64,000 nt of DNA, taken from positions 4,512,001-4,576,000 of the forward strand of contig JASGHG010000001.1 of the NCBI GenBank assembly GCA_047602425.1, in the 5' to 3' direction. The translations under genes and the position numbers were made by a program. This document shows, one piece after another, positions 49,475-63,279 of the stretch (position 1 is the stretch's first letter; each line of letters starts with the position of its first letter). A model generated the notes under the pieces. The model worked only from the letters and a program-made list of their open reading frames with translations, was not told the DNA's origin and did not search any database. This stretch comes from Nibricoccus sp. Lineage in GTDB: Bacteria > Verrucomicrobiota > Verrucomicrobiia > Opitutales > Opitutaceae.

Positions 49475-49556
49475 TTAGCGTTTACAGGAAGATACCTTGC
49501 ACATCAAACCAGTCCTATTTACCAAAGGCGCAAGGTTTTTTAGCCTGTATTCCCCC

Positions 49557-50645
49557 ATGTCGTTACATACTGAAATCTTCAATGACCTGTTAAAACTCGC
49601 GGTCGAGAGCGGCGCCAGCGATGTCGTGGTGAAATCCAACAAACCCGGCTACGTCCGTCTATCGGGTCGTTTGAAACCCGTCGACATGGACCCGATCGCC
49701 GGCACCGAAGCGCAAGCTTTCGTCGACGACCATGTTCCGCGCATCTTCAAGCAGCAGTGGGAAACCCTCGGCCAGATCGACTTCGCCTATACGGCGGAGA
49801 ACATCGGCCGTTTCCGCGTAAACGCTTTTCACCAACGAGGAACAGTCAGCGTGGTGTTTCGTCACGTGAAGAGCCGCGTGCCGAGTTTCAAAGAGCTTAA
49901 CCTCGACGAAGAACCGCTCCTTAACCTCGCGAAAGCGAAAGATGGCATTCTCCTCATTTGCGGCGCGACCGGTGCGGGCAAAAGCTCCACCATGGCCGCT
50001 ATCCTTGACTGGGTTAACCACAACCACGACCGCCACATCGTGACCATCGAAGATCCGATCGAGTACACGTTCCAAGACGACAAGTCCGTCTTTAACCAAC
50101 GTGAAATCGGCCTCGATGTGCCGGATTTCGCCACGGCGATCCGCTCGGTGCTCCGTCAAAATCCCGATATCATTCTGATCGGTGAAATGCGCGACCGCGA
50201 AACCTTCGAAACCGCCATCGCCGCCGCCGAAACCGGTCACTTGGTGCTTTCGACCATGCACGCCGCGACCGTGGCACAATCGCTCACGCGTCTCTTCGAA
50301 TTTTTCCCGCCCGAGCAGCAGCAGAGCGCCCGCCGACAGATTTCCGGCTCGATCTGCGGTATCGTTTGTCAGCGCTTGATTCCTGCGCTGGAAGGCGGCG
50401 GTCGCATCCCGGCCACGGAAATTCTCAATGCCGATGCCACGATCAAAACCCTGATCCTCGAAGGCAAATTCGAGAAAATTCAGAGCCTGCTCGAAAGCAC
50501 CGGCGACACGAAAACCTATTCGTTCAACAAAGACCTTTACCGCCTCGTGAAGGCGGGTCTCATCAGTAAAGCCGATGCACTGCGGTTTTCGCCAAATCCG
50601 CAGGCGCTCGACATGAATCTAAAAGGCATCTTTATTACCGCTTAG
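49557..50645 (+). CDS. PilT/PilU-family type IV pilus ATPase
   Basis: GATGAGKS, TIEDPIEY, QREIG, LRQNPD...GEMRD, AAETGHLVLSTMH. Confidence 0.9.
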   Translation: MSLHTEIFNDLLKLAVESGASDVVVKSNKPGYVRLSGRLKPVDMDPIAGTEAQAFVDDHVPRIFKQQWETLGQIDFAYTAENIGRFRVNAFHQRGTVSVVFRHVKSRVPSFKELNLDEEPLLNLAKAKDGILLICGATGAGKSSTMAAILDWVNHNHDRHIVTIEDPIEYTFQDDKSVFNQREIGLDVPDFATAIRSVLRQNPDIILIGEMRDRETFETAIAAAETGHLVLSTMHAATVAQSLTRLFEFFPPEQQQSARRQISGSICGIVCQRLIPALEGGGRIPATEILNADATIKTLILEGKFEKIQSLLESTGDTKTYSFNKDLYRLVKAGLISKADALRFSPNPQALDMNLKGIFITA

Positions 50646-50658
50646 CGCCACGAACCGC

Positions 50659-51558
50659 GTGGTGCGGCCTTTTGTGAAACGAAACCTCGCAGTTATCGCA
50701 GCCTTGGCGCTGTGCGCACTCGCGCACGGACAAACATCTTCGAGCAACTCGACCCAGTCTCCAGCGACCGGCGAAAACACCTTGGAATCTGCCCGTCGCG
50801 AGTTGAAGGAACTGCCTGCATTGGAACGCTCACGCGACGTACTCGGCAAACACCCCGGCCTCGGCTCCGCCGGACTGCCCACGCTCACGCTGCCCGGAGA
50901 CGCGGGCAACTCCACCGCGCGACCCGACCCTGATAAGCCAATTTCAACCAACTGGTTACAGGATGCTTTGAACCAGACCGACGCCGAGGCCGCCACCCGC
51001 CGCCGGTCGAACGATTCCTCCCTCGTACACGAGCGCGACCAAGGAGGCGGTTACAAACCCGTTGAGGCTCCAAATCCCTTGGGACAATTCATGGCGCAAT
51101 GGATTTCGCCGCGCGATCTTGAGCTTTTGCAGGCTGGCCAAGACACGAAAAAATCCAACGGAGCGACCGACCCCTTCGTTAAATCTTGGGAGCCCTTGCG
51201 CCCTGCGGGATATCAAAGTCCGATCACCGATGTTGCTCGTAGCCCGTTGTCCGAACCAAACGACACGCCCCTCGTTCCGATTCTGGCAGCGCCTCGAAAT
51301 CCTTACATCGAAGAGCCCGATTCAACGCCGCCGCCGAGCCCGAATTTAATGCTTTCGCCGGCTGCGTTAGGCCGGCCTCAGCCGGATCGTTCCCGCGGCC
51401 CGGAATCACTTTCGTCTTTGCCTGTCGCGAGTCCGTCAGGCCCGAACCAGCCGGCCACTCTCAAACCCGCTGCCACGCCGGTTGCCGAACCACAGCGCCC
51501 GCCGACGGCTCCAATCGTCGACGACCGCAAATACTTCCCGCAACTTCGCCGGTTTTAG
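50659..51558 (+). CDS. Hypothetical exported Pro-rich protein
   Basis: Signal peptide (AHG), low-complexity body, ends KYFPQLRRF. Confidence 0.6.
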   Translation: MVRPFVKRNLAVIAALALCALAHGQTSSSNSTQSPATGENTLESARRELKELPALERSRDVLGKHPGLGSAGLPTLTLPGDAGNSTARPDPDKPISTNWLQDALNQTDAEAATRRRSNDSSLVHERDQGGGYKPVEAPNPLGQFMAQWISPRDLELLQAGQDTKKSNGATDPFVKSWEPLRPAGYQSPITDVARSPLSEPNDTPLVPILAAPRNPYIEEPDSTPPPSPNLMLSPAALGRPQPDRSRGPESLSSLPVASPSGPNQPATLKPAATPVAEPQRPPTAPIVDDRKYFPQLRRF

Positions 51559-51605
51559 GGCTTGGCCCCGCCGGTCGGGGACTTTACGAGTGTACCTTTT
51601 ATTTT

Positions 51606-52511
51606 ATGGCACTCGCACTTCTCTTCGCCGGTCAAGGCGCCCAAAAAGTCGGTATGGGCAAATCGCTCTACGAAAATTCCGCGGCTGCTCGCGCCCTCTA
51701 TGATGAGGCTAATCGCGTGCTGGGCTGGGACTTGACCAAGATCTCGTTCGAAGGTCCTGACGCTGAGCTCACGCAGACCAAAGTCTGTCAGCCCGCGCTT
51801 TTCGTGCACGGCCTCGCGCTGCACGCCGCGCTGAAAGAACAGGGCAAATTGCCTACCGTGAGCTACGCGCTCGGCTTGAGCTTGGGCGAAGTCACGGCGC
51901 TGACCGCCGCAGGCGTTTTTGATTTTTCGACCGGCTTGAAAGTCGTCGCCGAACGCGGTCGCCTCATGCAGGTCGCCTGCGAGCAAACCGTCGGCGGCAT
52001 GGCCGCCATCGTCGGCGAAGAGCGCAGCACCGTTGCGACGCTTTGCCAGGAATTCGACGTCGAAGCCGCGAATTTCAACGCTCCCGGCCAAATCATCATC
52101 TCCGGCGAAAAAGCCAAAATCGAAGCCGCCGTCGAAGCCGCTAAAGCCCGCGGCATCAAAAAGGCCATGGCGCTCAACGTCGCCGGTGCGTACCACAGCC
52201 GCTTGATGGTTCCAGCGCGCGATGCGTTCGCGAAGTTCCTTGAGACCGTAAAATTCAACGCTCCGCAATTCACCGTCTTCACCAACACCACCGGCAAAGC
52301 TGTCTCGAACCCCGACGACATCCGCGCCGCGCTGGTGAAACAAGTCGTGTCGTCCGTCCTCTGGGAAGACTGCATGCGCAGCGCTGTCGCCGCGGGTGCC
52401 ACGGAATTTCTCGAACTCGGCATGGGCGGCGTTCTCGCCGGTCTCGCCCGACGCACCGACAAAGCCTGGGTCGTCAAATCGATGGCCGAGTATTCGGACA
52501 CCACGGCTTGA
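51606..52511 (+). CDS. fabD: Malonyl-CoA:ACP transacylase
   Basis: FAGQGAQ, QPAL, GLSLGE, AGAYHS. Confidence 0.93.
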   Translation: MALALLFAGQGAQKVGMGKSLYENSAAARALYDEANRVLGWDLTKISFEGPDAELTQTKVCQPALFVHGLALHAALKEQGKLPTVSYALGLSLGEVTALTAAGVFDFSTGLKVVAERGRLMQVACEQTVGGMAAIVGEERSTVATLCQEFDVEAANFNAPGQIIISGEKAKIEAAVEAAKARGIKKAMALNVAGAYHSRLMVPARDAFAKFLETVKFNAPQFTVFTNTTGKAVSNPDDIRAALVKQVVSSVLWEDCMRSAVAAGATEFLELGMGGVLAGLARRTDKAWVVKSMAEYSDTTA

Positions 52512-52591
52512 AACCCGGCCGCAAGCCCGCACGCTAAGACCTTTTAAACTGTTAGCACCCGCCCGGGCGATGAGCCTTGGCGGGCCCTTGT

Positions 52592-54391
52592 ATGGAAGAA
52601 CTCCTGACCAGAAATTTTTGTATCATTGCCCACGTCGATCATGGCAAGACGACGCTTTCCGACCGGCTGCTCGAATACACGAACACCGTCGAACAGCGCG
52701 TGCTCACCGACCAGCACCTCGACGCGATGGATCTGGAAAAGGAACGCGGCATCACGATCAAAAGTCATCCCGTAACCATGACGTACACGGCCAAAAACGG
52801 CCGGAAGTACAAACTCAACCTCATGGACACGCCGGGACACGTGGATTTTTCCTACGAGGTTTCTCGCAGCCTCGCCGCGTGCGAAGGCGCTGTTCTTCTC
52901 ATCGACGCGGGGCAGGGTGTGGAAGCGCAGACCGTGGCCAATTACCACCTCGCTGTCTCGCAGCACCTGAAAATCATTCCGGTCATCAACAAGATCGATC
53001 TGCCTGCCGCCAATCTCGAACTCTGTCTCAAGCAGATGGAGGACATTTTGACGATTCCGCACGACGAGGCCATCCTCGCCAGCGGTAAATCCGGCATCGG
53101 CATCGAAGATATTCTCGAAGCCGTCGTGGCCCGTATTCCGCCGCCGCGTTGGCGCGATTACCCGCAAACCCGCACCTTGGTCTTCGATTCGCTCTACGAT
53201 TCCTACCGCGGCGTGATTACCTACGCGCGTGTGTTTTCTGGCGCAGTGAAAGCCGGCGACATGATGCTCCTGATGAGCAACGGACAAAAATCCGAAGTTA
53301 AGGAAGTCGGCGTTTTCACGCCGAAAATGCAGAAGGTCGATGTCCTCGGCGAAGGCGATGTCGGCTATGTCGTTTCCAACATCAAGGATCCTTCCGAGAT
53401 CAAGATTGGCGACACTCTCACGCTCGCGCGCCAGCCCGCTGCCGAGATGCTTCCGGGTTACAAGGAAGTCCGCCCCATGGTTTTCTGCGGACTCTATCCT
53501 CTCGAATCCTCCGACTACGAAAAGCTCAAGGCCGCCCTCGGACGCTTGCGCCTCAACGACTCGGCTTTCTTGTATCAGTCTGAAAGTTCGGTCGCGCTTG
53601 GCTTCGGTTTTCGCTGCGGCTTCCTCGGCCTGCTCCACATGGAAATCATCCAGGAACGCATCCGCCGCGAGCACGACGTCGAAATCATCTCCACGTACCC
53701 GAGCGTCGTTTATAAGGTTAAAATCCAAGGCGGTACCGAACACTTCGAAGTCGACAATCCGATCAATTTGCCCGATCCCGGTACGATCCTCGAAATCTGC
53801 GAGCCGACGATCAACGCCTCCATCCACATCCCCAACGATTCGATGGGCGACATCCTTGCGTTGATCATGGAAAAACGCGGCGTCTGCGAGCACACCGATA
53901 CGCTCGACGCCACGCGCGTCATGATGCGCTGCGTGCTTCCGCTCAACGAGATTCTCGTCGATTTCAACGACCGTCTGAAATCCATCACGCACGGCTACGG
54001 CTCGATGGATTACGAACTCGGCGAATATCGTCCCTCGGACCTGGTGAAAATGGACATCCTCATCAATGGCGATCCCGTCGACGCTTTCGCCAGCATTGTC
54101 CATCGCGAAAAAGCCGAAGGCAAAGGCCGCGAACTTTGCGAAAAGCTGGCCGATATTATCCCGCCACAGATGTTCAAAGTTGCAATTCAAGCTGCGATCG
54201 GCGGCAAAGTCATCGCCCGCGACAACGTCCGCGAAATGCGAAAAGACGTGACCGCGAAGTGCTATGGCGGCGACATTTCCCGCAAGCGCAAACTTCTCGA
54301 CAAGCAGAAGGAAGGCAAAAAGAAGATGAAGCTGATCGGAAAAGTTTCGATTCCGCCCGACGCTTTCATCAAGGTGCTGAAGAACAACTAA
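52592..54391 (+). CDS. lepA: Elongation factor 4
   Basis: RNFCIIAHVDHGKTT, DTPGHVDF, GFRCGFLGLLHM, KCYGGDISRKRKLL. Confidence 0.97.
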   Translation: MEELLTRNFCIIAHVDHGKTTLSDRLLEYTNTVEQRVLTDQHLDAMDLEKERGITIKSHPVTMTYTAKNGRKYKLNLMDTPGHVDFSYEVSRSLAACEGAVLLIDAGQGVEAQTVANYHLAVSQHLKIIPVINKIDLPAANLELCLKQMEDILTIPHDEAILASGKSGIGIEDILEAVVARIPPPRWRDYPQTRTLVFDSLYDSYRGVITYARVFSGAVKAGDMMLLMSNGQKSEVKEVGVFTPKMQKVDVLGEGDVGYVVSNIKDPSEIKIGDTLTLARQPAAEMLPGYKEVRPMVFCGLYPLESSDYEKLKAALGRLRLNDSAFLYQSESSVALGFGFRCGFLGLLHMEIIQERIRREHDVEIISTYPSVVYKVKIQGGTEHFEVDNPINLPDPGTILEICEPTINASIHIPNDSMGDILALIMEKRGVCEHTDTLDATRVMMRCVLPLNEILVDFNDRLKSITHGYGSMDYELGEYRPSDLVKMDILINGDPVDAFASIVHREKAEGKGRELCEKLADIIPPQMFKVAIQAAIGGKVIARDNVREMRKDVTAKCYGGDISRKRKLLDKQKEGKKKMKLIGKVSIPPDAFIKVLKNN

Positions 54392-54416
54392 CCACGACCT
54401 CGACCCCGGAAACACC

Positions 54417-55700
54417 TTGGCTAGCCAACCACAACAAAGTACCAAAGCGCGTCTGTTTGTCGGTTGGCTCACGTCGATGTTTTCCGTCGAGGGCAAGATG
54501 CGCGCCAACGCCAAAAACTGGCTGGAACTCGCTGAGAAGGTTTACCACTACCGCCGCGACGTTATCTCCCAAGTGCTCGCCGCCGAACTCCAGTCGCAGA
54601 TCGCGAACCTGCGAAAGATGCTCAAGGAGCGCACCAATGCGGCGAAGTTGAAACTCGGCATCGAGGAGCTTGAAGGCGTGATGCGTCGCACGGGCGGAAA
54701 AGTTTACCCCAAGTCGACGGTTCAGGAATATGTGGAATTTTTCCTTGTGGCTGCAATCGTGGTGCTCGGTATCCGCACATATTTTGTGCAGCCGTTTAAA
54801 ATCCCGACGAACTCGATGTGGCCGACTTACAACGGCATGACGCCACAAGTGTACAAAGATCCGTCGCAAGCTCCGGGGGTCGCGGCGCAAGCCTTGCGGT
54901 TCGTCGCCTTTGGCGCGCAATACAAACAGCTCGTCGCGCCGGAATCCGGCAAAATCACGATTCAGGTCCGGCCCAATTATAATGGCCTCCTTTACTATCA
55001 ATTGAAGCCCGGTCGCAAATGGGGTTTATTCTCAACGCTGGTGAGAGAATACCTGTTTTATGTCGGCGATGAAGCCGTTCGCCTTCAAGTCCCTGAGGAT
55101 TTCGATTTTGATACGGCTCTCCGCGAAGCGTTTGGAGTTTCAAATCGAGAGCTCGACCAGCTTGCGCGGAAATCCCAGCGCGGAGACTATGATTTTCGGT
55201 GGGTGACACTAGATCGTGAAGTGCAGAAAGGGCAGGTGTTCCTGAGTTTTGATATTATGACCGGGGATCAGCTTTTCGTTGATCGACTGAGTTATCACTT
55301 CGTATCGCCAAAGCCGGGCGACGGTTTTGTGTTTAGGACCGGACGTATTTCAGGAATCGGCGCGGATCAGTACTACATCAAACGTCTGGTGGGCGTGCCC
55401 GGCGACCAGCTGGAGATTCGCGAACCCGTTTTATATAGAAACGGACAACCGATTACCGGCGCGGAAGCTTTTCAAAAAAATGGACGGCGCGAAGGAAAGT
55501 ACGCCGGTTATTTTAATATTGGCCTTTTGGAGTCGGGCAGTGTGGTGACGGTTCCCAAAGATGGTTATTTCGCGCTCGGCGATAACTCGGGAAACAGCAA
55601 AGACAGCCGCTACTGGGGTTTTGTCCCGCGAAAGGACGTCGTAGGCCGACCCCTGTTTATCTACTATCCTTTCACAAACCACTGGGGCTTGGCGCCTTGA
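54417..55700 (+). CDS. lepB: Signal peptidase I
   Basis: PFKIPTNSMWPT (Ser), YIKRLVG (Lys), GDNSGNSKDSRYWG. Start TTG 54417 or ATG 54477. Confidence 0.92.
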   Translation: MASQPQQSTKARLFVGWLTSMFSVEGKMRANAKNWLELAEKVYHYRRDVISQVLAAELQSQIANLRKMLKERTNAAKLKLGIEELEGVMRRTGGKVYPKSTVQEYVEFFLVAAIVVLGIRTYFVQPFKIPTNSMWPTYNGMTPQVYKDPSQAPGVAAQALRFVAFGAQYKQLVAPESGKITIQVRPNYNGLLYYQLKPGRKWGLFSTLVREYLFYVGDEAVRLQVPEDFDFDTALREAFGVSNRELDQLARKSQRGDYDFRWVTLDREVQKGQVFLSFDIMTGDQLFVDRLSYHFVSPKPGDGFVFRTGRISGIGADQYYIKRLVGVPGDQLEIREPVLYRNGQPITGAEAFQKNGRREGKYAGYFNIGLLESGSVVTVPKDGYFALGDNSGNSKDSRYWGFVPRKDVVGRPLFIYYPFTNHWGLAP

Positions 55701-55731: not shown

Positions 55732-56616
55732 TTACCAGTAGAAGAAATTCAATTTGGGATCCAAATAGTCTTGCGTGGGCATTTTCAGCGTTGTCCGCCA
55801 GACCGTCGCGTAACGCGACCAAGGGCCTCGAATTTCACCATCGAAAATAGGATGCCATTCGGGCGCGGGCTTGGTGGGCCCTTCGGCGACGCGATCAAGA
55901 AACTCCTGATGTCCCTCGGGACTCGCAAAGTAAAGACAGCGCCGCTCAAGGTGATCGTTGATGGCCTTGGTACGCCCACAGATCTTGTGGTAGGTCACGA
56001 TAAACTCGTTGCGGGCCAGTTCCACAATCGCGCGGGTCGTGGCCCCGGCAATGGTTTGTCCCGCTGCGTACCCATAGCTGACGTGGCCCGATTTGGACTT
56101 CCGATAGACAATGACCACTTCGCCAAAGTCGGCGGGGTGGTGAAGCCTAAGAACTTCTATGCCGGGCAGAGCGGAATTGGTCGGCGAAGCATCGATATGG
56201 CCCGCCCACCAAGCCACGACTGACAGCTGCTCAAGAGCTTCCATGTGAGCTCTCCGCCTCGCCTGAATCTTAAAAAACCCTGGAAACGCCGCCATTCCAT
56301 TCGAGGAACAGTCCTCTTTGAAACCGTAGCGCCCGGCATTGGGGCCGTCGTGTTCGGCATGAAAGGCCCAACGTTCGATGGCTTCGGAGACCGCCATATT
56401 GCGGGCGACCTTGGGTGATTCGCTCGATCCTGAGCCATCAGCCGGTGTTCCTTTAGCAAACTGGGGCTTGCGTGGTGCGAGCCCCGGTGCAAGAAAAGCA
56501 TCGGCTTGAAAAAGACTTTGGCCAAAGATCGATACCGGCGTGGAGACGATCCTCGCAATAGGCCCGCCCGAATCAGCGAGGGCGTGCCGATATTTCAACA
56601 CTGCGAGATCGATCAT
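55732..56616 (-). CDS. Short YcaO-like ATP-dependent peptide-backbone modifying enzyme
   Basis: YcaO ATP/Mg motifs in canonical order: GSG...A...AVSEAIERW, SSNGMAA...A....EALEQ, GYAAG...A..RAIVEL. Confidence 0.75.
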   Translation of the reverse strand: MIDLAVLKYRHALADSGGPIARIVSTPVSIFGQSLFQADAFLAPGLAPRKPQFAKGTPADGSGSSESPKVARNMAVSEAIERWAFHAEHDGPNAGRYGFKEDCSSNGMAAFPGFFKIQARRRAHMEALEQLSVVAWWAGHIDASPTNSALPGIEVLRLHHPADFGEVVIVYRKSKSGHVSYGYAAGQTIAGATTRAIVELARNEFIVTYHKICGRTKAINDHLERRCLYFASPEGHQEFLDRVAEGPTKPAPEWHPIFDGEIRGPWSRYATVWRTTLKMPTQDYLDPKLNFFYW

Positions 56617-56658
56617 GATTATAATATTAGGGGTATAAAAAATAGCTATATGGGCGCC

Positions 56659-56859
56659 TTAGAGACCTTCCCAAGGACCTTCATCGCCACCGTCTGGTGT
56701 AAGAAGACCTTCCCACGGACCCTCATCACCGCCATCGGGCATTGCAAAAACGACGGCCTTGGGCTCGCTCACGGAGTTGGTGACTTTGGCATTTGCGATT
56801 CCGACGAAAAGCAGCTGAGCTGCGAAGCTGACGAGGATGAAACGAGCTAAGTTTTTCAT
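56659..56859 (-). CDS. Putative RiPP/signalling precursor: Sec signal, spacer, and two PDGGDEGPWEGL cores
   Basis: MKNLAR + hydrophobic core + ANA cleavage site. Two identical 12-aa repeats differ only at 7 synonymous third positions. Lies 42 bp upstream of the YcaO-like gene on the same strand. Confidence 0.8.
   Translation of the reverse strand: MKNLARFILVSFAAQLLFVGIANAKVTNSVSEPKAVVFAMPDGGDEGPWEGLLTPDGGDEGPWEGL
56662..56739 (-). repeat. Tandem 36-nt coding repeat (42-nt period)
   Basis: CCCGATGGCGGTGATGAGGGTCCGTGGGAAGGTCTT (56739-56704) vs CCAGACGGTGGCGATGAAGGTCCTTGGGAAGGTCTC (56697-56662). Confidence 0.9.
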
Positions 56860-56909
56860 AACGTTACAATGTCTAGCTCATATTTTTCTCAGTTTAGAGC
56901 ATGTCGTTT

Positions 56910-56947
56910 ACCTAAAATGAGTATAGGTCCATACCTTCGGAAAGGTA
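56910..56947. promoter_or_regulatory. Candidate NarL/LuxR-type operator dyads
   Basis: ACCTA-N9-TAGGT (56910-56928) and TACCTT-CGGA-AAGGTA (56932-56947), 51-88 bp upstream of the precursor ATG. Confidence 0.3.
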
Positions 56948-59900
56948 CGATAAGGAGGCTTTTTCCGCATATTTTACAATGCGGGCTCCTCTTTTTTATA
57001 GTTTTTACCGTCGGCGTTACGAGGGGTGCCACCTCGTTTATAGATGAAGCACCACTCATTCGGAACTACTCGACGGATGAAATAGGTACCACGTCCAAGG
57101 TCTGGTGCTTGCAGGAGTCGCCCGAGGGTTTGCTGTACGCGGGCGCGGATCGCCTGTTGATTTATGACGGTGCCAGTTGGATTGCGGCTCCGCGCATGGA
57201 GAATTCAGCTGAAGTCAGGAGTATTTGTCTTCAGGGAAAGCGGATTTGGGCCGGAGGGAGCAACGAAGTAGGATACTACGAGAAAGATAGCAGCGGCGCG
57301 TATGTATATACGAGTATTACGTCACAGCTTCCCGATAAATTCTACGGTACTGTATTACATATCTATAATATGGATGACAGTATTGTATTGGTTACCAACC
57401 GCAAAGTGATACAGCTTTCTAAAAAATCAGGCGTCGCGGCCAAGGTATCTGACTTTCAAAACGATAACTATCTTCGTCCATTCACTTCGGACGGTGCGTT
57501 ATATATTAATCAGAAAGTTGGTGCTGAATCTAAGGTATGGGTGTTAAAAGATGGGGTGTTGGAGCTTGTTCCCGCCGTTTTGGGATCGGGAACCGGCACG
57601 GCATCGCTCCTAGGGAAGATCGATAAAAATTGGATTGTGGCCGTCGACTTCACGATCTTTTCCAAAAATATGGAATCAGGCGAGGAGCGGCGGATTTTCT
57701 CAGATCAAGGCGATCTGACCCGTGCGTGGATAACTGGAAACACAGTTTGCGACAACGACCATATTTATATTGGGACACGAGCAGGCGGCTATTTTGTCGT
57801 CGAACTCAATGGAAAGGTACAACAGATAACCAAGGCACAGGGACTTGCTTCAGATGGCTGCAATGCCATTTTGCCGAGTCGGGCTGGCGGTATTTGGGTG
57901 GCAACCGATGACGGGATAAGTTTTGTGCAAGATCGTTCCGGTGCGGGATGGATCCCTTTACCCAGTGAAGTCCGTTCAATACTGGCGGACAACGACGACG
58001 CTTATATTAGCTATGCACAATCCGCTCTGTTTTTATCTCCGGAGGGACGAACGGATCTTCCTGATCAGCTTCGAGCGTCATGGACACGCGTGAACGACAA
58101 CGTTTATGCCTTGGCGAGAGAAAAACTTTATAAAGCGCGAATCGGGACTGCGGACTTTAAGGAGATTCCTGGAGTGGATGGCATGCGTCTTCGCACCATC
58201 GTGGGTTTTGCAGGAGCGAGTGAATTTATCTACGGAGGAATGGCGACTTCTTCTGGCCAACGTGGATTAATGCGGTTGGATCTGAAGTCGGGCGAGGTGA
58301 CGACCTGTGAGGTGACCGATGGCATTAGCTATTATCTTCAGGATAAAATGGGGCGCCTGTGGTTTCGAACCGACCCGGGATCGATCATGATGATTGACGA
58401 TGCGTTGCGTCGCAGTTCCCTGCAAATGGCGAGTCGCAAGCGTTGCAAACTGACGCTTCACGAGGGGCAACCTTTGGCCCTGTTTGACGATTCCGGATTC
58501 ACCACGATGAAGGGGGAGAAAATCCGCAATACCGAGGGAGTTGCCGGCGCCTTGGGCACGGAATGCGTGGACGGTGCGGCTTGGGTTTTTGGACGTTTTG
58601 AAAATGCCCTCCGCGTAGGTGTGATCACGGGCGATGGCGAGGGGTTGGCGTGGAGGCAAAAAAACATTCCTGGCCTGAAACGATTCAAAAATCTGACTGC
58701 GATCTTCCGTTCTGGGGATGATTTGTGGCTAGGCGGCGACTCGGGAGTAATCCACGTCGATACGACCAAACTTTCCGGTCCGGACTTCACGCTGCCTGAG
58801 ATCGAAATCACCGTGAGAAATCCGAAGACGAAGGAACAACGTGTGCTGCCAGCGGGGTCGCGGACAATTCAGCTCACCAATTCGGAGCAGGAAATCTCCA
58901 TCCGTTTTAAAACGCATGTTTGGGGACTGTTGGAACCGCCGCAGTTTGAATCCCGGTTGTTGCCACTGGAGGATGAGTGGAAGCTGCATAAATACGGCGA
59001 AGATGTTACTCGCAGTTATGTTCCAACCGGTCAGCACACCCTGCAGCTACGCGTTCACCACCTCGGTGAAACCGGCCCGGTTACAGCATTCCAAGTGGTG
59101 CGTCCGCTGCCGTGGTATTTTTCGTATACCGGTATCACGCTGTTCGGTCTCACGGGCTGTATATTGTTTTATGGTGCGGTGAAGCTGCGTACCCGCCAGA
59201 TCAGTGCACGCAATCGCGAATTGGAGCTGAAGATTGCGGAGCGCACTCAGGAACTGGCCCGGGCCAATTCCGCCAAATCGGAGTTCCTTGCAGCAATGAG
59301 CCACGAGATTCGCAACCCGATGAACGGCGTCATTGGCATCGTGAAGATTCTTCAGGAGGCTAAGCTTGGGTCGCGCGAAAAATATTATCTCACCACACTG
59401 CATCGCTGCGCGGAACAATTGCGCACGACGGTCGACGACGTCCTCGATTTCTCAAAGATCGAAGCCGGAAAAATCACGTTGCATCCCGACACGTTTGATC
59501 TTTCGGAGAGCATCAACGCGACCATAACGTCCCTCGATCTTGCCGGTGACCGCCTCGAACTTGCCTCTTGGGCCGGACCTCGCCCAATCGTCACGGGCGA
59601 CCACGGAAAATTCTGTCAGATCCTCACCAACTATTTCAGCAATGCACTTAAATACGGTGTTCCGCCCGCGGCGTCGATTGATGTGTATGTATTGAACGAG
59701 GGACTACAGCGGTGTCGGGTCACGGTCGCGGTGAAAAACACCGGCCCCGACATACCGCCGCACGAGCAGGCCACGCTTTTCGAAACCTTTACCCGCGGCG
59801 AATACGCCAAACGCGGCCGAATCGGCGGAAGCGGACTCGGTCTTTCCATCTGCAAAAAGTTCGCCGAAACCATGGGAGGCAGCGTCGGCGTGACGAGTTC

Positions 59901-60759
59901 AAGCGGGCTGACCGTTTTCCAAGTCACGATACCCTTTGAGATCGCGCAAGTTCACCGCCGCGACGACGCCAACGGCGGGACAACGCGCAGCTTGAATGCG
60001 CGCGCCCTCGCCATCGAAGATGAAGACTACAATCGGCTCGTGTTGGGCAATATTCTCGCGAAATTGGGTTACAAAGTTGATTGGGCATGCGATGGAAAAA
60101 CCGCCCTGCAACTTGCCCAGCAAAACGGCTACGATCTGATCCTCACCGATCTCATGCTGCCCGACACCGACGGTGGCACACTTACACGTGAGATCCTTCA
60201 ACATTGTGAAGAGCCAAAGCCGCCCATTTTTGCCGTCACCGCTTATTCAACCAAGGAAAAGGAGGACGAGTGCACCCAGGCTGGCATGGCAGGCTTCATC
60301 AGCAAACCGATCACGGTGGAAAAATTGGAAGCAGCAATCCAAGGCTGGGCGTCGCAGCATCGCACCTCGGCAAAACCGTTCGTCGAACCGGCCGCTCCCA
60401 CCGCGAATATCACAGTGACGCAACTCGGCCGGCTCGGACCGCTCGAGGTCATTTTGCCCGACTTCATGCGCAAAATCGAAAACGAGTGGGCGGGCATTGA
60501 TCGCATGCTGGAGGATCGCGAGTGTACTCCGGCGGCCAATGCGGCGCACAAACTTGTCAGCGCGATGTTGCTGGTGGAAGCCGATGTATTGAGCGATCAA
60601 CTACGCTTGCTCGAACGCCGGTTGCGCGATGGCGCCTTGGAGAGCGAAATTGAAAAAGTGCGCTCCATCTGCCGGGAGGAAGTGGCCAACGTCGGACAGG
60701 CCCTGAAGGCGGCGCTCGCCCGCCATCAACGTTTCAACGCAGATCGTCCACAGACGTGA
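56917..60759 (+). CDS. Hybrid sensor kinase: signal/TM, beta-propeller and Y_Y_Y-like ectodomain, TM, HisKA, HATPase, REC, Hpt-like
   Basis: Propeller repeats (GLLYAG, RIWAGG, GGIWVATDDGI, DLWLGG), MSHEIRNPMNG, NALKY, GGSGLGL, REC EDE..DLMLP..KP, AAHKL. ORF open from 56869; exact start uncertain. Confidence 0.9.
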   Translation: MSIGPYLRKGTIRRLFPHILQCGLLFFIVFTVGVTRGATSFIDEAPLIRNYSTDEIGTTSKVWCLQESPEGLLYAGADRLLIYDGASWIAAPRMENSAEVRSICLQGKRIWAGGSNEVGYYEKDSSGAYVYTSITSQLPDKFYGTVLHIYNMDDSIVLVTNRKVIQLSKKSGVAAKVSDFQNDNYLRPFTSDGALYINQKVGAESKVWVLKDGVLELVPAVLGSGTGTASLLGKIDKNWIVAVDFTIFSKNMESGEERRIFSDQGDLTRAWITGNTVCDNDHIYIGTRAGGYFVVELNGKVQQITKAQGLASDGCNAILPSRAGGIWVATDDGISFVQDRSGAGWIPLPSEVRSILADNDDAYISYAQSALFLSPEGRTDLPDQLRASWTRVNDNVYALAREKLYKARIGTADFKEIPGVDGMRLRTIVGFAGASEFIYGGMATSSGQRGLMRLDLKSGEVTTCEVTDGISYYLQDKMGRLWFRTDPGSIMMIDDALRRSSLQMASRKRCKLTLHEGQPLALFDDSGFTTMKGEKIRNTEGVAGALGTECVDGAAWVFGRFENALRVGVITGDGEGLAWRQKNIPGLKRFKNLTAIFRSGDDLWLGGDSGVIHVDTTKLSGPDFTLPEIEITVRNPKTKEQRVLPAGSRTIQLTNSEQEISIRFKTHVWGLLEPPQFESRLLPLEDEWKLHKYGEDVTRSYVPTGQHTLQLRVHHLGETGPVTAFQVVRPLPWYFSYTGITLFGLTGCILFYGAVKLRTRQISARNRELELKIAERTQELARANSAKSEFLAAMSHEIRNPMNGVIGIVKILQEAKLGSREKYYLTTLHRCAEQLRTTVDDVLDFSKIEAGKITLHPDTFDLSESINATITSLDLAGDRLELASWAGPRPIVTGDHGKFCQILTNYFSNALKYGVPPAASIDVYVLNEGLQRCRVTVAVKNTGPDIPPHEQATLFETFTRGEYAKRGRIGGSGLGLSICKKFAETMGGSVGVTSSSGLTVFQVTIPFEIAQVHRRDDANGGTTRSLNARALAIEDEDYNRLVLGNILAKLGYKVDWACDGKTALQLAQQNGYDLILTDLMLPDTDGGTLTREILQHCEEPKPPIFAVTAYSTKEKEDECTQAGMAGFISKPITVEKLEAAIQGWASQHRTSAKPFVEPAAPTANITVTQLGRLGPLEVILPDFMRKIENEWAGIDRMLEDRECTPAANAAHKLVSAMLLVEADVLSDQLRLLERRLRDGALESEIEKVRSICREEVANVGQALKAALARHQRFNADRPQT

Positions 60760-61378
60760 AGCCGCGTTTGAGCGCGTAGGATTGAAGCTGAAGCGCGCTG
60801 TGCAGACCGAGTTTCCGCATGATATTGCGGCGATGGGTTTGCACGGTGTCCGGGCTGAGCGCGAGAAGGGGAGCGGCTTCCTCATTGCTGAGTCCTTGTC
60901 CGAGCAATTCGAGGACGCCCTGTTCTTTGTCAGTAAGGATTTTGTTGAAGCTTTCGGGGTTGTGGCCCATCTGCCGCCGCAATTGCTGAACGGTGAAACC
61001 GAAATAACAGCCGCCCTGCATCACGGTGTCGATTGCACCGACCAGCGCGTCGGAAGAATCGTCCTTGTGAACGTAACCGTCGGCGCCCGATTGCAGCGCT
61101 TTATATAAAAGATAGTCCTCTTTTACGGAGGAGAGGAGGATGACTTTAGTCTCAGGAAGTAGTTCGTTAAATTTTCCGGCAAGCGTGATGCCATCTTCGC
61201 CCGGAAGCTGAATATCGAGAAGAATCAGGTCTATGCGGCCCAGTGTGGGCATCGCTTCGATGAAGGCTGCGCCCGAACCGTAACCTCCCACGACGGTCAC
61301 GTTTTCCTTGGCCTGAATCATGACCGTCAGGGCCGTCCGGAACATCACTTGGTCTTCAATGATGGCAATGCGCGGCAT
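60734..61378 (-). CDS. NarL/FixJ-family response regulator (REC + LuxR HTH)
   Basis: IIEDQ, LLDIQLPG, GYVHK, LTDKEQGVLELLGQGLSNEE...TVQTHRRNIMRKLG. Convergent with the kinase, 26-bp overlap. Confidence 0.93.
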   Translation of the reverse strand: MPRIAIIEDQVMFRTALTVMIQAKENVTVVGGYGSGAAFIEAMPTLGRIDLILLDIQLPGEDGITLAGKFNELLPETKVILLSSVKEDYLLYKALQSGADGYVHKDDSSDALVGAIDTVMQGGCYFGFTVQQLRRQMGHNPESFNKILTDKEQGVLELLGQGLSNEEAAPLLALSPDTVQTHRRNIMRKLGLHSALQLQSYALKRGFTSVDDLR

Positions 61379-61552
61379 AGGGGTGGTATTTGTTTTTTAA
61401 CTGATGACGTTCTGCAAATGTTTAGCGGTTCTGCTCCCGAAATCAATGATGGTGATGCGAACGGGAAGAACAAGGCGCATTTGAGGTTTTTCGGAAGCGC
61501 GGCGCATTTAAACGCATTGCACAAAGACGATGGCCTGCCCAAGTTGGTTGCG

Positions 61553-62026
61553 GTGGGTTACGAAAAACATCTTTTGATTGATGGTTCCAACATCCTGCAT
61601 GCCTGGCCGGAGTTGCGTCTGCTTTTACGGCGGGAACGCGACGTGGCGCGGGAGAAATTGCTGCAGATTGTCCGCATTCTTCATGATGCGGAACAGGTGC
61701 GGCTAACGGTGGTTTTTGACGGACGTGGCAGCGAACTGGTCGTCGAGCATCCGGGTGATGCGACGACTTTTTCCCTGGTGTTCACACCAACCGGAATGAC
61801 GGCCGACGACGCCATTGAGCAACTGGTCGGAAAAGCCGCGGACGCTGCGGTGTGCCTGGTGGCAACCGATGATTGTGCAGAGCGGCAGACGATTGAGGCC
61901 GTGGGCGCCACTGGGCTATCCGCCGAGGAATTGCGGGCGTGGGTAACGCGAACTGAACAACATCAGCAAACGCAGCTTGCCAGCCAGCGGCGGAAGAACG
62001 AAACCATTTGGAAGAACAAAATATGA
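61553..62026 (+). CDS. YacP-like NYN-domain (PIN-fold) protein
   Basis: LLIDGSNI, VVFDG, TADDAIE, VATDD. Start placed at GTG 61553. Confidence 0.8.
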   Translation: MGYEKHLLIDGSNILHAWPELRLLLRRERDVAREKLLQIVRILHDAEQVRLTVVFDGRGSELVVEHPGDATTFSLVFTPTGMTADDAIEQLVGKAADAAVCLVATDDCAERQTIEAVGATGLSAEELRAWVTRTEQHQQTQLASQRRKNETIWKNKI

Positions 62027-63279
62027 TCATGACTCAGCAGGGGGGTGGCGGTGGCGTGGCAGAAATTCAGGGCCTGTATGGTCCTTTTTCATTTCCGGAA
62101 AAATTGCTTCAGCAGATTTGGCTGCGTGGCGATTTTGACCAGGCGCGGGCTCGGACGACCGATGGACGTCCCGTCCGGGTTTTGCAGGTTGGACGTTGGA
62201 ACCGGTTGGGCGGCCCGGATTTTAAACAAGCGCGAATCGACATCGGCGGCGAAATCGTCTCGGGCGACGTGGAAATTCACCTACACGCAAGCGACTGGGC
62301 GGCGCACGGCCATTCGAGCGATCGAGGCTACGAACGTGTAGTGCTGCACGTGATACTTTTTCCAACCGATGAACTCGCAACCTTGGGTTGTGACGGCCAC
62401 AGGCTCCCGATTCTGCCATTGCTGCCATTGTTGAATCACGACTTGGAGGAATACGCAGCCGACGAAGCTATTGAACGATTGGCCGACCATCCCCTTGCAC
62501 AGGTGCGCAGTGAATTGCTTCAGATGGAACCAGCCCGCCTGCAACAGGAGTTGCAACGTCTTGCCGCGAGGCGCTGGGACCAAAAAGTGCACTTCGCAAA
62601 ATTGCGCGTGGGGCGACTCGGTTGGGACGCGGCCTGTCATCACACGGCATTGGAAATATTGGGTTACCGTTTCAATCGGGCTCCGATGCTCGCCGTGGCG
62701 ACCGCGTATCCGCTGGCCGAATGGGGGAGGGCGGACGCAAATTTTCTCAAAAACGTCCATGCTCGTTTCGACGACCGTTGGTACAAACAAAGTATTCGTC
62801 CGGCGAACCATCCCCGCGCTCGTCTACAACAATACGCTCAATGGGTGGCCGCGCGTCCCGACTGGCCTCAAAAATTACTGCGGCTCTCGGGCAAACTGCC
62901 ATCGTTGGAAATGGCGCACGCGTTTCAAACCGGCGCCGTCCGCCGGGCGCACCGGTGGCCCGAATTAACGAAGCAGCTCGTATCTCAGGTTTTCGGAGAT
63001 GCGGTCGGTGGCACGCGATTGAACACGCTGATCTGCGATGGCATGCTGCCGCTTCTCGCCAGTCAGCCGTCGGCCGTCGCTCTTTCCGGCCTTTGGTTTG
63101 CCTGGCCGCCGGGCGACATTCCGGCAAAATATGGCCGGACGCTTCGCGAATTGGGGATAGTTGACGCGCGTGTCCGACCGCTCAGTCATGGCGTCTTGCA
63201 AGGCCTCATTGGCTGGCTGCTCGCCAACGAATCGTCAGTCCAGCCCTCCTGCCCAACTCGGGACGGGAGCGGGGCTTGA
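62023..63279 (+). CDS. DUF2851-family protein
   Basis: EKLLQQIW, GPDF, GDVEIH...W..HGH..D..Y..VVLHV, RPANHP. Confidence 0.78.
   Translation: MIMTQQGGGGGVAEIQGLYGPFSFPEKLLQQIWLRGDFDQARARTTDGRPVRVLQVGRWNRLGGPDFKQARIDIGGEIVSGDVEIHLHASDWAAHGHSSDRGYERVVLHVILFPTDELATLGCDGHRLPILPLLPLLNHDLEEYAADEAIERLADHPLAQVRSELLQMEPARLQQELQRLAARRWDQKVHFAKLRVGRLGWDAACHHTALEILGYRFNRAPMLAVATAYPLAEWGRADANFLKNVHARFDDRWYKQSIRPANHPRARLQQYAQWVAARPDWPQKLLRLSGKLPSLEMAHAFQTGAVRRAHRWPELTKQLVSQVFGDAVGGTRLNTLICDGMLPLLASQPSAVALSGLWFAWPPGDIPAKYGRTLRELGIVDARVRPLSHGVLQGLIGWLLANESSVQPSCPTRDGSGA

Follow-up and report, generated by a model that had tools for sequence, protein, structure and literature searches.

Here we describe a four-gene block in a window of DNA from Nibricoccus sp. 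(the whole 64,000-nucleotide stretch analysed, positions 4,512,001 to 4,576,000 of contig JASGHG010000001.1, assembly GCA_047602425.1); below, G000 denotes the genome of the window, other G-numbers denote genomes and L-numbers denote loci. The block encodes a short YcaO-like protein, a 66-aa candidate precursor peptide, a hybrid histidine kinase with a large propeller ectodomain and a response regulator of the NarL/LuxR type. The four-gene block is real and conserved, and it looks like an undescribed peptide-signalling loop of the order Opitutales. We give an even chance to the view that the block is an autoinducing signalling cassette, the exported peptide of which is cyclodehydrated at cysteine in most lineages and is probably unmodified in the lineage of the window. 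The window itself carries an odd version, in which the peptide has lost the cysteine that YcaO probably modifies. A sequence-only reading of the window had proposed a block of this composition, and all four open reading frames (ORFs) are found where it placed them.

Results

YcaO matches were detected in 176 of the 401 genomes of the family (129 of the 286 high-quality ones; 35 of 63 genera), and a phylum-wide sample contained a match in 31 of 401 genomes, every one within Opitutales. The named relatives are Nibricoccus sp. and Opitutaceae, so that the host, which the sequence-only reading had guessed to be probably verrucomicrobial, belongs to this order. Synteny was read in 80 wide regions of the approximately 200 matches, chosen by genus spread and length before the neighbours were seen, together with two named loci and 80 metagenome loci; only sufficiently long loci were counted. 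Among the genome loci, including the window, the peptide is present in 78 of 82, the ectodomain in 80 of 81, the kinase core in 80 of 80 and the regulator, in place, in 66 of 76; the respective counts for the metagenome loci are 53/54, 43/43, 21/21 and 14/15. Because the leader profile used to find the peptides was built on the first 60-odd loci, the metagenome peptide count is the fairer one. With the window excluded, all four genes occur in the same layout in 64 of 75 loci, and the precursor-like ORF and the kinase accompany the YcaO homologue in 76 of 79, the co-occurrence whose absence, by the terms of the sequence-only reading, would have refuted its proposal.

The genes flanking the cassette vary among the loci. 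The lepB neighbour occurs only in 14 loci near the window's clade, and a functional link to lepB was rejected on account of this restriction. In the kinase tree, 97 cassette kinases form one side of a branch that separates them from 8 propeller-kinase paralogues of G000, and 42 of the 50 supported splits of the YcaO tree recur in the tree of the kinase core, with 2 in conflict. Because the layout is conserved within differing flanks and the YcaO and kinase trees agree, the four-gene block is inherited as a unit. Inspection of the neighbours revealed no transporter or oxidase gene common to the loci. In two loci no peptide gene was found, namely L083, with a shortened kinase that lacks the ectodomain, and L071, where the ectodomain is present. 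Six YcaO matches occur in the single genome G199, and the two that were read are complete cassettes of different types (L053, L085).

Judged from its sequence, the 66-aa ORF is a gene, because its core copies differ only by silent codons and close relatives carry clear orthologues. Read by eye, the peptide shows an N-region with K/R, a hydrophobic stretch and, just ahead of Lys25, A-N-A, and its second half holds an exact 12-residue repeat, the copies of which differ at 7 of 12 codons. When a leader profile of the family was compared with the small ORFs of G000, only the window's ORF fell below E 0.1 (E 1e-8; the next reached 0.15). The family peptides are 45-104 aa long (median 60) and typically consist of a signal-like leader with a conserved Gly, the motif A-A-E-K/R-L/F-D-P, a free linker and a Cys core. 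Cysteine is present in 140 of the 156 distinct peptides, as a single residue in 70, and is missing from 16; Pro-Cys occurs in 96 and C-x-x-P-C in 35, and 115 of the 242 Cys residues are preceded by Pro, against a Pro background of 12.5%. Such typical precursors, with the leader Asp motif and a Pro-Cys core, would fit thiazoline formation. In the window's clade the Asp motif is absent and the residue after C-x-x-P is Gly, Asp or Val; the window peptide has also lost the Cys of C-x-x-P.

The sequence-only reading had described a multicore peptide modified by YcaO. The repeat is there in the window, but as a family trait it fails, internal repeats being present in 10 of 157 loci; modification is not supported for the window copy, the repeated core of which contains no Cys, Ser or Thr, the leader no Asp motif, and the enzyme Gln in place of Arg130. 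A tandem pair of precursor genes, of which only one encodes Cys, was observed in L057, L058, L062, L184 and L219, and L048, a second cassette in genome G101, carries two near-identical Cys-free precursor copies beside an R130Q enzyme.

Against the Pfam profile PF02624 the window's YcaO scores 18 bits, below the cut-off of 25.7, and a PF02624 search of the G000 genome found nothing, whereas many homologues do have a precomputed match to this profile. The structure model (pLDDT 89.7) superimposes on McbD with Z 16.5 and an rmsd of 4.1 over 256 aligned residues; five YcaO chains (from McbD, a methanogen YcaO, LynD and E. coli YcaO) match it at Z 12.6-16.5, with the next unrelated structure at 5.4, and Foldseek likewise places it in this fold (E 8e-7). 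By sequence, a search of solved structures with a wide alignment reached TruD (E 0.085) and MusD (E 0.38), and one with a close alignment returned ankyrin noise only. Residue 294 of the model aligns with the last residue of McbD and of LynD, and this residue, Trp294, is kept in 161 of 172 aligned homologues. For McbD, the terminal carboxyl is the proposed base (PMC6395948).

Residues S77, E78, E81, R82, S/T105, G107, E126, E129 and E199 are kept in 165-172 of the 172 aligned rows, and the window's YcaO retains all of them, with Ser at position 105, as well as the terminal Trp. Arg130 is kept in 156 of 172; it is Gln in the window and Gln or Leu in the window's clade. This position aligns to the Arg of E-L-V-E-R in TruD (the E-x-x-E-R motif), and we take the equivalent residue to be an ATP-contacting one. 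Furthermore, the window has G56 where most homologues have Y/F. In E. coli YcaO, replacement of ATP-binding residues impaired activity (PMC13063428). All ten scored ATP-site positions are intact in 136 of 157 loci, and the window keeps nine. Nevertheless, the window's YcaO remains under purifying selection: dN/dS is 0.092 in its clade (31 of 36 pairs usable) and 0.089 in an intact clade. A pseudogene reading was rejected given the full length and the dN/dS of 0.09.

No partner of the enzyme was recovered. TfuA (PF07812; control positive) and a SagB-type flavin dehydrogenase (TIGR03605) were found in 0 of 5 genomes, namely G000 and four relatives; no E1-like partner or RRE (recognition element for RiPPs, peptides made by the ribosome and modified after translation) was seen at the loci, and TIGR03882 exceeded the cut-off in 0 of 5 genomes, with none in G000 and three weak matches in the other tested genomes. 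A flavin dehydrogenase is optional in some azol(in)e pathways.

The state of the enzyme is coupled with that of the leader. Of 172 loci, 15 were dropped for a missing peptide or a gapped site; among the 157 scored, 21 are changed at one of the ten ATP-site positions, which requires 7 changes on the tree. The Asp motif is absent in all 21 of these loci, compared to 15 of the 136 with intact enzymes, and about half of the 15 are pattern misses. In independent pairs, 5.8 changed the same way and 0 the opposite way (median p 0.03). This value comes from the third of three definitions of the motif (median p 0.125, 0.125 and 0.031); the first two put several leaders out of register, and the third was drawn up once these leaders had been seen, so that the p is soft. 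Pro-Cys is absent in 18/21 changed and 40/136 intact loci, tandem cores occur in 6/21 and 4/136, and the residue behind C-x-x-P is Cys in 36 of 69 intact-enzyme cases as opposed to 0 of 12 with changed enzymes; the peptide bears Cys in 132 of the 136 intact-enzyme loci. We read these patterns as suggesting that the Asp motif is tied to YcaO function, most simply as the recognition site, and that the lineage of the window has abandoned the standard chemistry while still requiring the YcaO protein.

The kinase matches the Pfam families HisKA, HATPase and receiver, Reg_prop over the cut-off and Hpt weakly, and the regulator matches receiver and GerE. The model of the ectodomain (pLDDT 94.5) is matched by Foldseek to the Bacteroides hybrid sensors BT4663, BT4673 and BT3049 (E 6e-25 to 3e-22), with TM 0.61-0.70 to BT4663. 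Across loci the ectodomain is 13-53% identical, and its tree length is 86, compared to 35 for YcaO and 37 for the kinase core; its divergence is roughly three times as fast as that of the core. The excess divergence of the ectodomain tracks the divergence of the mature peptide (rho 0.43, p 0.006, 40 independent pairs; 3 of 43 pairs were dropped for cut tails, with adjustment for YcaO, kinase core, Hpt tail and third positions). The corresponding correlation with the peptide is -0.06 for the Hpt tail, 0.39 for each propeller half and 0.18 for the last 130 columns. The start codon of the kinase is uncertain: the first ATG lies 10 bases from the peptide start, which would place the operator within the coding sequence of the kinase, the perfect AAGGAGG at 56952-56958 is not followed by any in-frame ATG/GTG/TTG, and in the L001 kinase the first standard start lies past the hydrophobic stretch.

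The palindrome upstream of the peptide gene is conserved in a looser form, YAC-N10-GTR, which occurs between -112 and -60 in 72 of the 137 upstream regions compared to 6.5 in shuffles, with position peaks at -83 to -88 and -61 to -65; L044 and L198 have three operator-like sites at 22-23 base spacing. The class of the site follows the recognition helix of the regulator (TACC-T/C goes with THRRN, TACCG with KHRFN and an end in CGTA with THRS, and DHRKR has no site of this form), a correspondence that is confounded with kinship. In G000, TACCTT-N4-AAGGTA is the sole exact match of its pattern, and an exact-pattern search of ten genomes recovered the cassette site in 8, plus scattered others. This predicted site points to control of the peptide gene by the cassette's regulator, in support of the suggestion of the sequence-only reading that the peptide may induce its own gene. 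A sigma-70 scan gave one site, at chance level.

Operator-like sites were also observed away from the cassette. The top hit of the G000 operator scan falls inside a receiver-domain gene, and relatives carry two triple arrays. One, at L239:1479-2563, lies upstream of an HDOD-domain gene; in the other, at L236:1478-1800, the three sites are 22 bases apart, and behind them come TTGACA, a stretch of about 200 bases with no clear gene, and a hairpin. A small RNA behind the L236 array was considered and rejected, as it is not conserved in 41 genomes and has no Rfam match over the cut-off.

Discussion

The results translate into a model in which the mini-YcaO would bind the precursor in the cytoplasm through the leader helix and the Asp motif that comes after it and, using ATP, would cyclodehydrate the Pro-Cys cysteine to a thiazoline. 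The precursor would then be exported by Sec and lose its signal to signal peptidase, and the mature peptide would bind the kinase of the same cassette at its propeller ectodomain. Phosphate would pass from the receiver to Hpt and on to the LuxR-type regulator, which would bind the palindromes and activate peptide-ycaO, closing a positive feedback. The peptide core and the ectodomain would diversify together, yielding lineage-specific signals. Under this model, the window's lineage is derived, with the leader Asp, the Pro-Cys cysteine and Arg130 of YcaO lost; its signal would probably be an unmodified (or differently treated) acidic 12-mer in two copies, and YcaO might be kept for binding or a residual role.

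Several observations weigh against this model. A strict cleavage-site pattern is passed by 94 of the 156 peptides and failed by 62, and the regulator is not in place in 10 of the 76 genome loci. Some Cys is retained in 15 of the 21 loci with changed YcaO, and the loss of Pro-Cys, tried as the partner of the YcaO change, was unsupported in independent pairs (1.5 the same way, 0.7 opposite). A regulon beyond the cassette was not shown in G000 (6 sites at 16 bits against 2-4 in shuffled sequence). The leader also correlates with the ectodomain rate (0.44 vs 0.43 for the mature part), and we regard the rate link as moderate support because of this; as a long ectodomain makes a better clock, part of the correlation may be unspecific. 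A heparin/heparan sensor is among the ectodomain's relatives of solved structure. Finally, YcaO-less genomes contain kinases, outside the tree of the 97 cassette kinases, that are 44-46% identical to those in the core, have a convergent regulator and stand opposite genes for TonB-dependent receptors (L260, L262). Such pairs mean that in this layout a sensor and a regulator control a divergent operon, and the layout alone is no proof of self-sensing; only the nature of the divergent operon and the covariation point to it, and sensing of the peptide by the kinase is proposed from co-inheritance and the rate correlation.

The TonB-facing pairs, together with a glycan sensor as the best structural match, favour a different view, improbable in our judgement, in which the kinase responds to an external cue (glycan, metal, stress) and the Sec-exported, Cys-modified peptide is an output effector, metal-chelating or envelope-protecting. 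Bufferins, as described in PMC11626156, are of this kind, being Sec-exported, Cys-modified copper binders under a linked regulator, and C-x-x-P-C in over a fifth of the peptides would suit such a role. However, the cores are hypervariable, many with one Cys or none, the Cys-free lineages keep all of the cassette under selection, a sensor dedicated to a single fixed cue is not expected to diverge in step with the peptide, and no metal-related gene is common to the neighbours (first downstream genes). A signal passing between cells is also not needed if the peptide acts on the kinase within the same cell, as a periplasmic or membrane-anchored feedback modulator that reports export capacity, ATP or YcaO activity and not cell density; MgrB and SafA are examples of such same-cell modulators. 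The operator and the rate covariation fit this equally well, the cassette has no outer-membrane exporter, so that the product may remain periplasmic, and the leaders that fail the cleavage-site pattern, as well as the weakly hydrophobic ones of L120, L122, L123 and L129, would be expected. We nonetheless think it unlikely, because a private feedback peptide has little reason for fast diversification or for multiplication, seen here as tandem cores in 10 loci and two precursor genes in six (the five Cys/Cys-free pairs and L048).

The chemistry could differ as well. It is the Asp motif, not Cys, that tracks the integrity of the ATP site, the window's clade shows the same dN/dS as an intact clade, and MusD, titled an ATP-dependent peptidase, is among the structural matches, all of which would suit a YcaO whose target is the peptide backbone, either at the leader Asp motif or beside it (amidine, thioamide, ATP-dependent cleavage), or serves mainly as a chaperone holding the precursor from Sec. 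The window's enzyme could then still act on another bond, and this idea is partly compatible with the other readings. We consider it very unlikely, given that nearly all intact loci have a Cys-bearing peptide, that Cys after C-x-x-P is confined to intact enzymes, that the C-terminus aligns to the ends of the azoline-forming McbD and LynD and that five genomes lack TfuA. Returning to the proposed self-sensing, a bolder reading would be a widespread cell-to-cell language of Opitutales made of Sec-exported thiazoline peptides, produced by self-sufficient YcaOs of the smallest kind and read by a propeller sensor of the glycan type that has become a peptide receptor, with signal and receptor diversifying together. 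At least 7 times, a change in the ATP site with loss of the leader Asp would have led to unmodified, often multi-copy signals, the window's included, and the sister clade of YcaO in Bdellovibrionota would then use the same chemistry with another receptor. This picture is tentative, and we would rather expect some part of it to fail. The sister clade is of similar length and ends in Phe, its named members are Bdellovibrionota and one Elusimicrobiales, and it has no matches in viral contigs or plasmids.

Circuits built on peptide autoinducers are a theme of Gram-positive bacteria. The cassette resembles agr (AgrBDCA) and ComQXPA by layout and belongs to none of the tested families. Like these systems and nisin NisRK, it combines precursor, modifier, sensor kinase and regulator in a four-gene block, with a variable signal and sensor input domain and tandem regulator sites, here predicted ones, upstream of the peptide operon. 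Compared to agr and ComQXPA, no part is of the same family: a YcaO stands in place of AgrB/ComQ, the host is a diderm, the putative signal peptide is of the Sec type and a 700-residue propeller ectodomain on a hybrid kinase replaces the multi-pass sensor. Among the four cassette proteins, no Pfam or NCBIfam match to an AgrB/ComQ modifier or an AgrC/ComP-type sensor was found.

The enzyme shares the fold (Z 16.5, 15.4), the E-x-x-E-R motifs and, in most of the family, the Cys-bearing precursors of McbD (6gos), LynD/TruD (4v1t, 4bs9) and MusD (7u58), and it has Ser/Thr at the position read by motif as Thr148 of McbD, besides the aligned conserved C-terminal residue. Unlike these proteins, it is only 294 aa long, 12-15% identical to them, without an E1/RRE partner or a dehydrogenase, and ends in an aromatic residue and not Pro; moreover, its precursor has a putative signal peptide and it is wired to a kinase. 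The stand-alone protein-thioamidating YcaOs (E. coli YcaO on uL16, PMC13063428; methanogen 6ci7 and 6pe3; Z 15.8, 13.8, 12.6) also do without an E1 partner, but they act on large proteins, whereas nearly every locus of the present family has a small, dedicated precursor gene immediately upstream. Bufferins and oxazolins (PMC11626156, PMC12452194) share with the typical cassette a Cys-bearing RiPP precursor, a Sec signal (a putative one in the cassette), the absence of a dedicated exporter and a linked regulator. As portrayed there, bufferins have an MNIO plus DUF2063, folded multi-Cys copper binders and SigF/NrsF, in contrast to YcaO, short variable cores and a two-component pair; the four-gene block, to which the search was limited, contains no MNIO with a DUF2063 partner.

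The ectodomain has the fold of those of BT4663, BT4673 and BT3049 at 14-16% identity, BT4663 being titled a heparin/heparan sensor. These Bacteroides sensors are fused to an AraC domain. In contrast to BT4663-type systems, the cassette has a separate LuxR-type regulator, no AraC domain in the kinase and no polysaccharide genes.

No description of the four-gene block was found in the full-text literature searched, which mostly excluded subscription journals, and a YcaO network in a supplement could include the clade. One paper that mentions both YcaO and Opitutus was found, and Opitutus is merely a training genome in it (PMC7794033). Sec-exported modified peptides are called rare in bacteria (PMC11626156, PMC12452194). 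If the proposed circuit is true, Verrucomicrobiota gain a testable communication system, which about 45% of the good genomes would carry in a single family abundant in soil and water, a sensor fold familiar from sugar recognition gains a peptide ligand, and a 294-residue YcaO that works without a partner becomes useful for mechanism and peptide engineering. The sub-threshold Pfam score of the window's YcaO may be why standard mining misses the cassette. In addition, the natural range of enzymes, intact at one end and changed at the other, comes with matched precursors and receptors and provides ready controls for leader binding and for ligand/receptor co-evolution.

Layout of the locus and additional observations

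Table 1. Features of the four-gene cassette, in window coordinates
Feature	Position	Strand	Remarks
YcaO-like gene, minimal stand-alone	55732-56616	-	294 aa; ORF list, structure model
Precursor/signal peptide gene	56659-56859	-	66 aa; family member directly upstream of YcaO
Putative Sec-type signal region, residues 1-24, ending A-N-A	56788-56859	-	Read from sequence; leader helix conserved in the family, Asp motif missing after it
Core repeat 1, residues 41-52	56704-56739	-	Acidic, without Cys/Ser/Thr
Core repeat 2, residues 55-66	56662-56697	-	Residues as in repeat 1; 7 silent codon differences
16-bp palindrome TACCTT-N4-AAGGTA, predicted regulator site	56932-56947		88 bases upstream of peptide start
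Second, weaker operator-like site	56909-56924		One good half-site; 23 bases nearer peptide gene
Hybrid histidine kinase	56869-60759	+	1296 aa; signal/anchor, ectodomain, HisKA, HATPase, receiver, weak Hpt
Kinase ectodomain, all-beta, two-propeller plus Y_Y_Y fold	57037-59115	+	Residues 57-749; model and Foldseek
NarL/LuxR-type response regulator	60734-61378	-	214 aa; receiver and GerE helix-turn-helix

The block is flanked by lepB before it and a YacP-type NYN gene after it, and the kinase diverges from the minus-strand peptide and ycaO genes. The sequence-only reading had the regulator following the kinase; its NarL/LuxR type is confirmed, but the gene lies on the opposite strand, convergent with the kinase gene, the last 26 bases of which it overlaps. 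As that reading also noted, the block holds no transporter, protease, dehydrogenase or TfuA gene. GC content is 0.48-0.50 at 56500-57999, compared to 0.51-0.63 in the other bins of the window. In two soil RNA runs, 4-8% of words matched; the contigs are short, low-depth pieces on ycaO, with none on the peptide gene, a result that speaks neither for nor against expression.

Many of the loci with a shared downstream gene carry further signalling proteins. In 15 loci (L034-L045, L047, L049-L051), ycaO is directly followed by a 68-103 aa helical ORF with a weak TPR match and then by a soluble kinase-like HATPase protein, and in other clades by receiver or PAS-kinase genes. A signal-bearing M3 oligopeptidase gene, the product of which could trim or destroy the peptide, comes after ycaO on the same strand in L055, L060 and L061, and a TIR-like (ThsB-type) gene lies just behind it in L064, L071, L072 and L080.

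Related propeller kinases also occur in other settings. In L264, one with a convergent regulator faces genes for a small secreted protein and ECF/FecR-like proteins, and those of L263, which has a TAC-N10-GTA site, and L266 face, by eye, haemagglutinin-like genes. G000 itself encodes thirteen further long proteins with this type of ectodomain, 8 of which have a kinase core like that of the cassette. The flanks at 49497-55700 and 61544-63279 are ordinary (PilT-type ATPase, fabD-type acyltransferase, lepA, lepB, YacP-type NYN and DUF2851), and a secreted Pro-rich protein without a Pfam match is encoded at 50659-51558.

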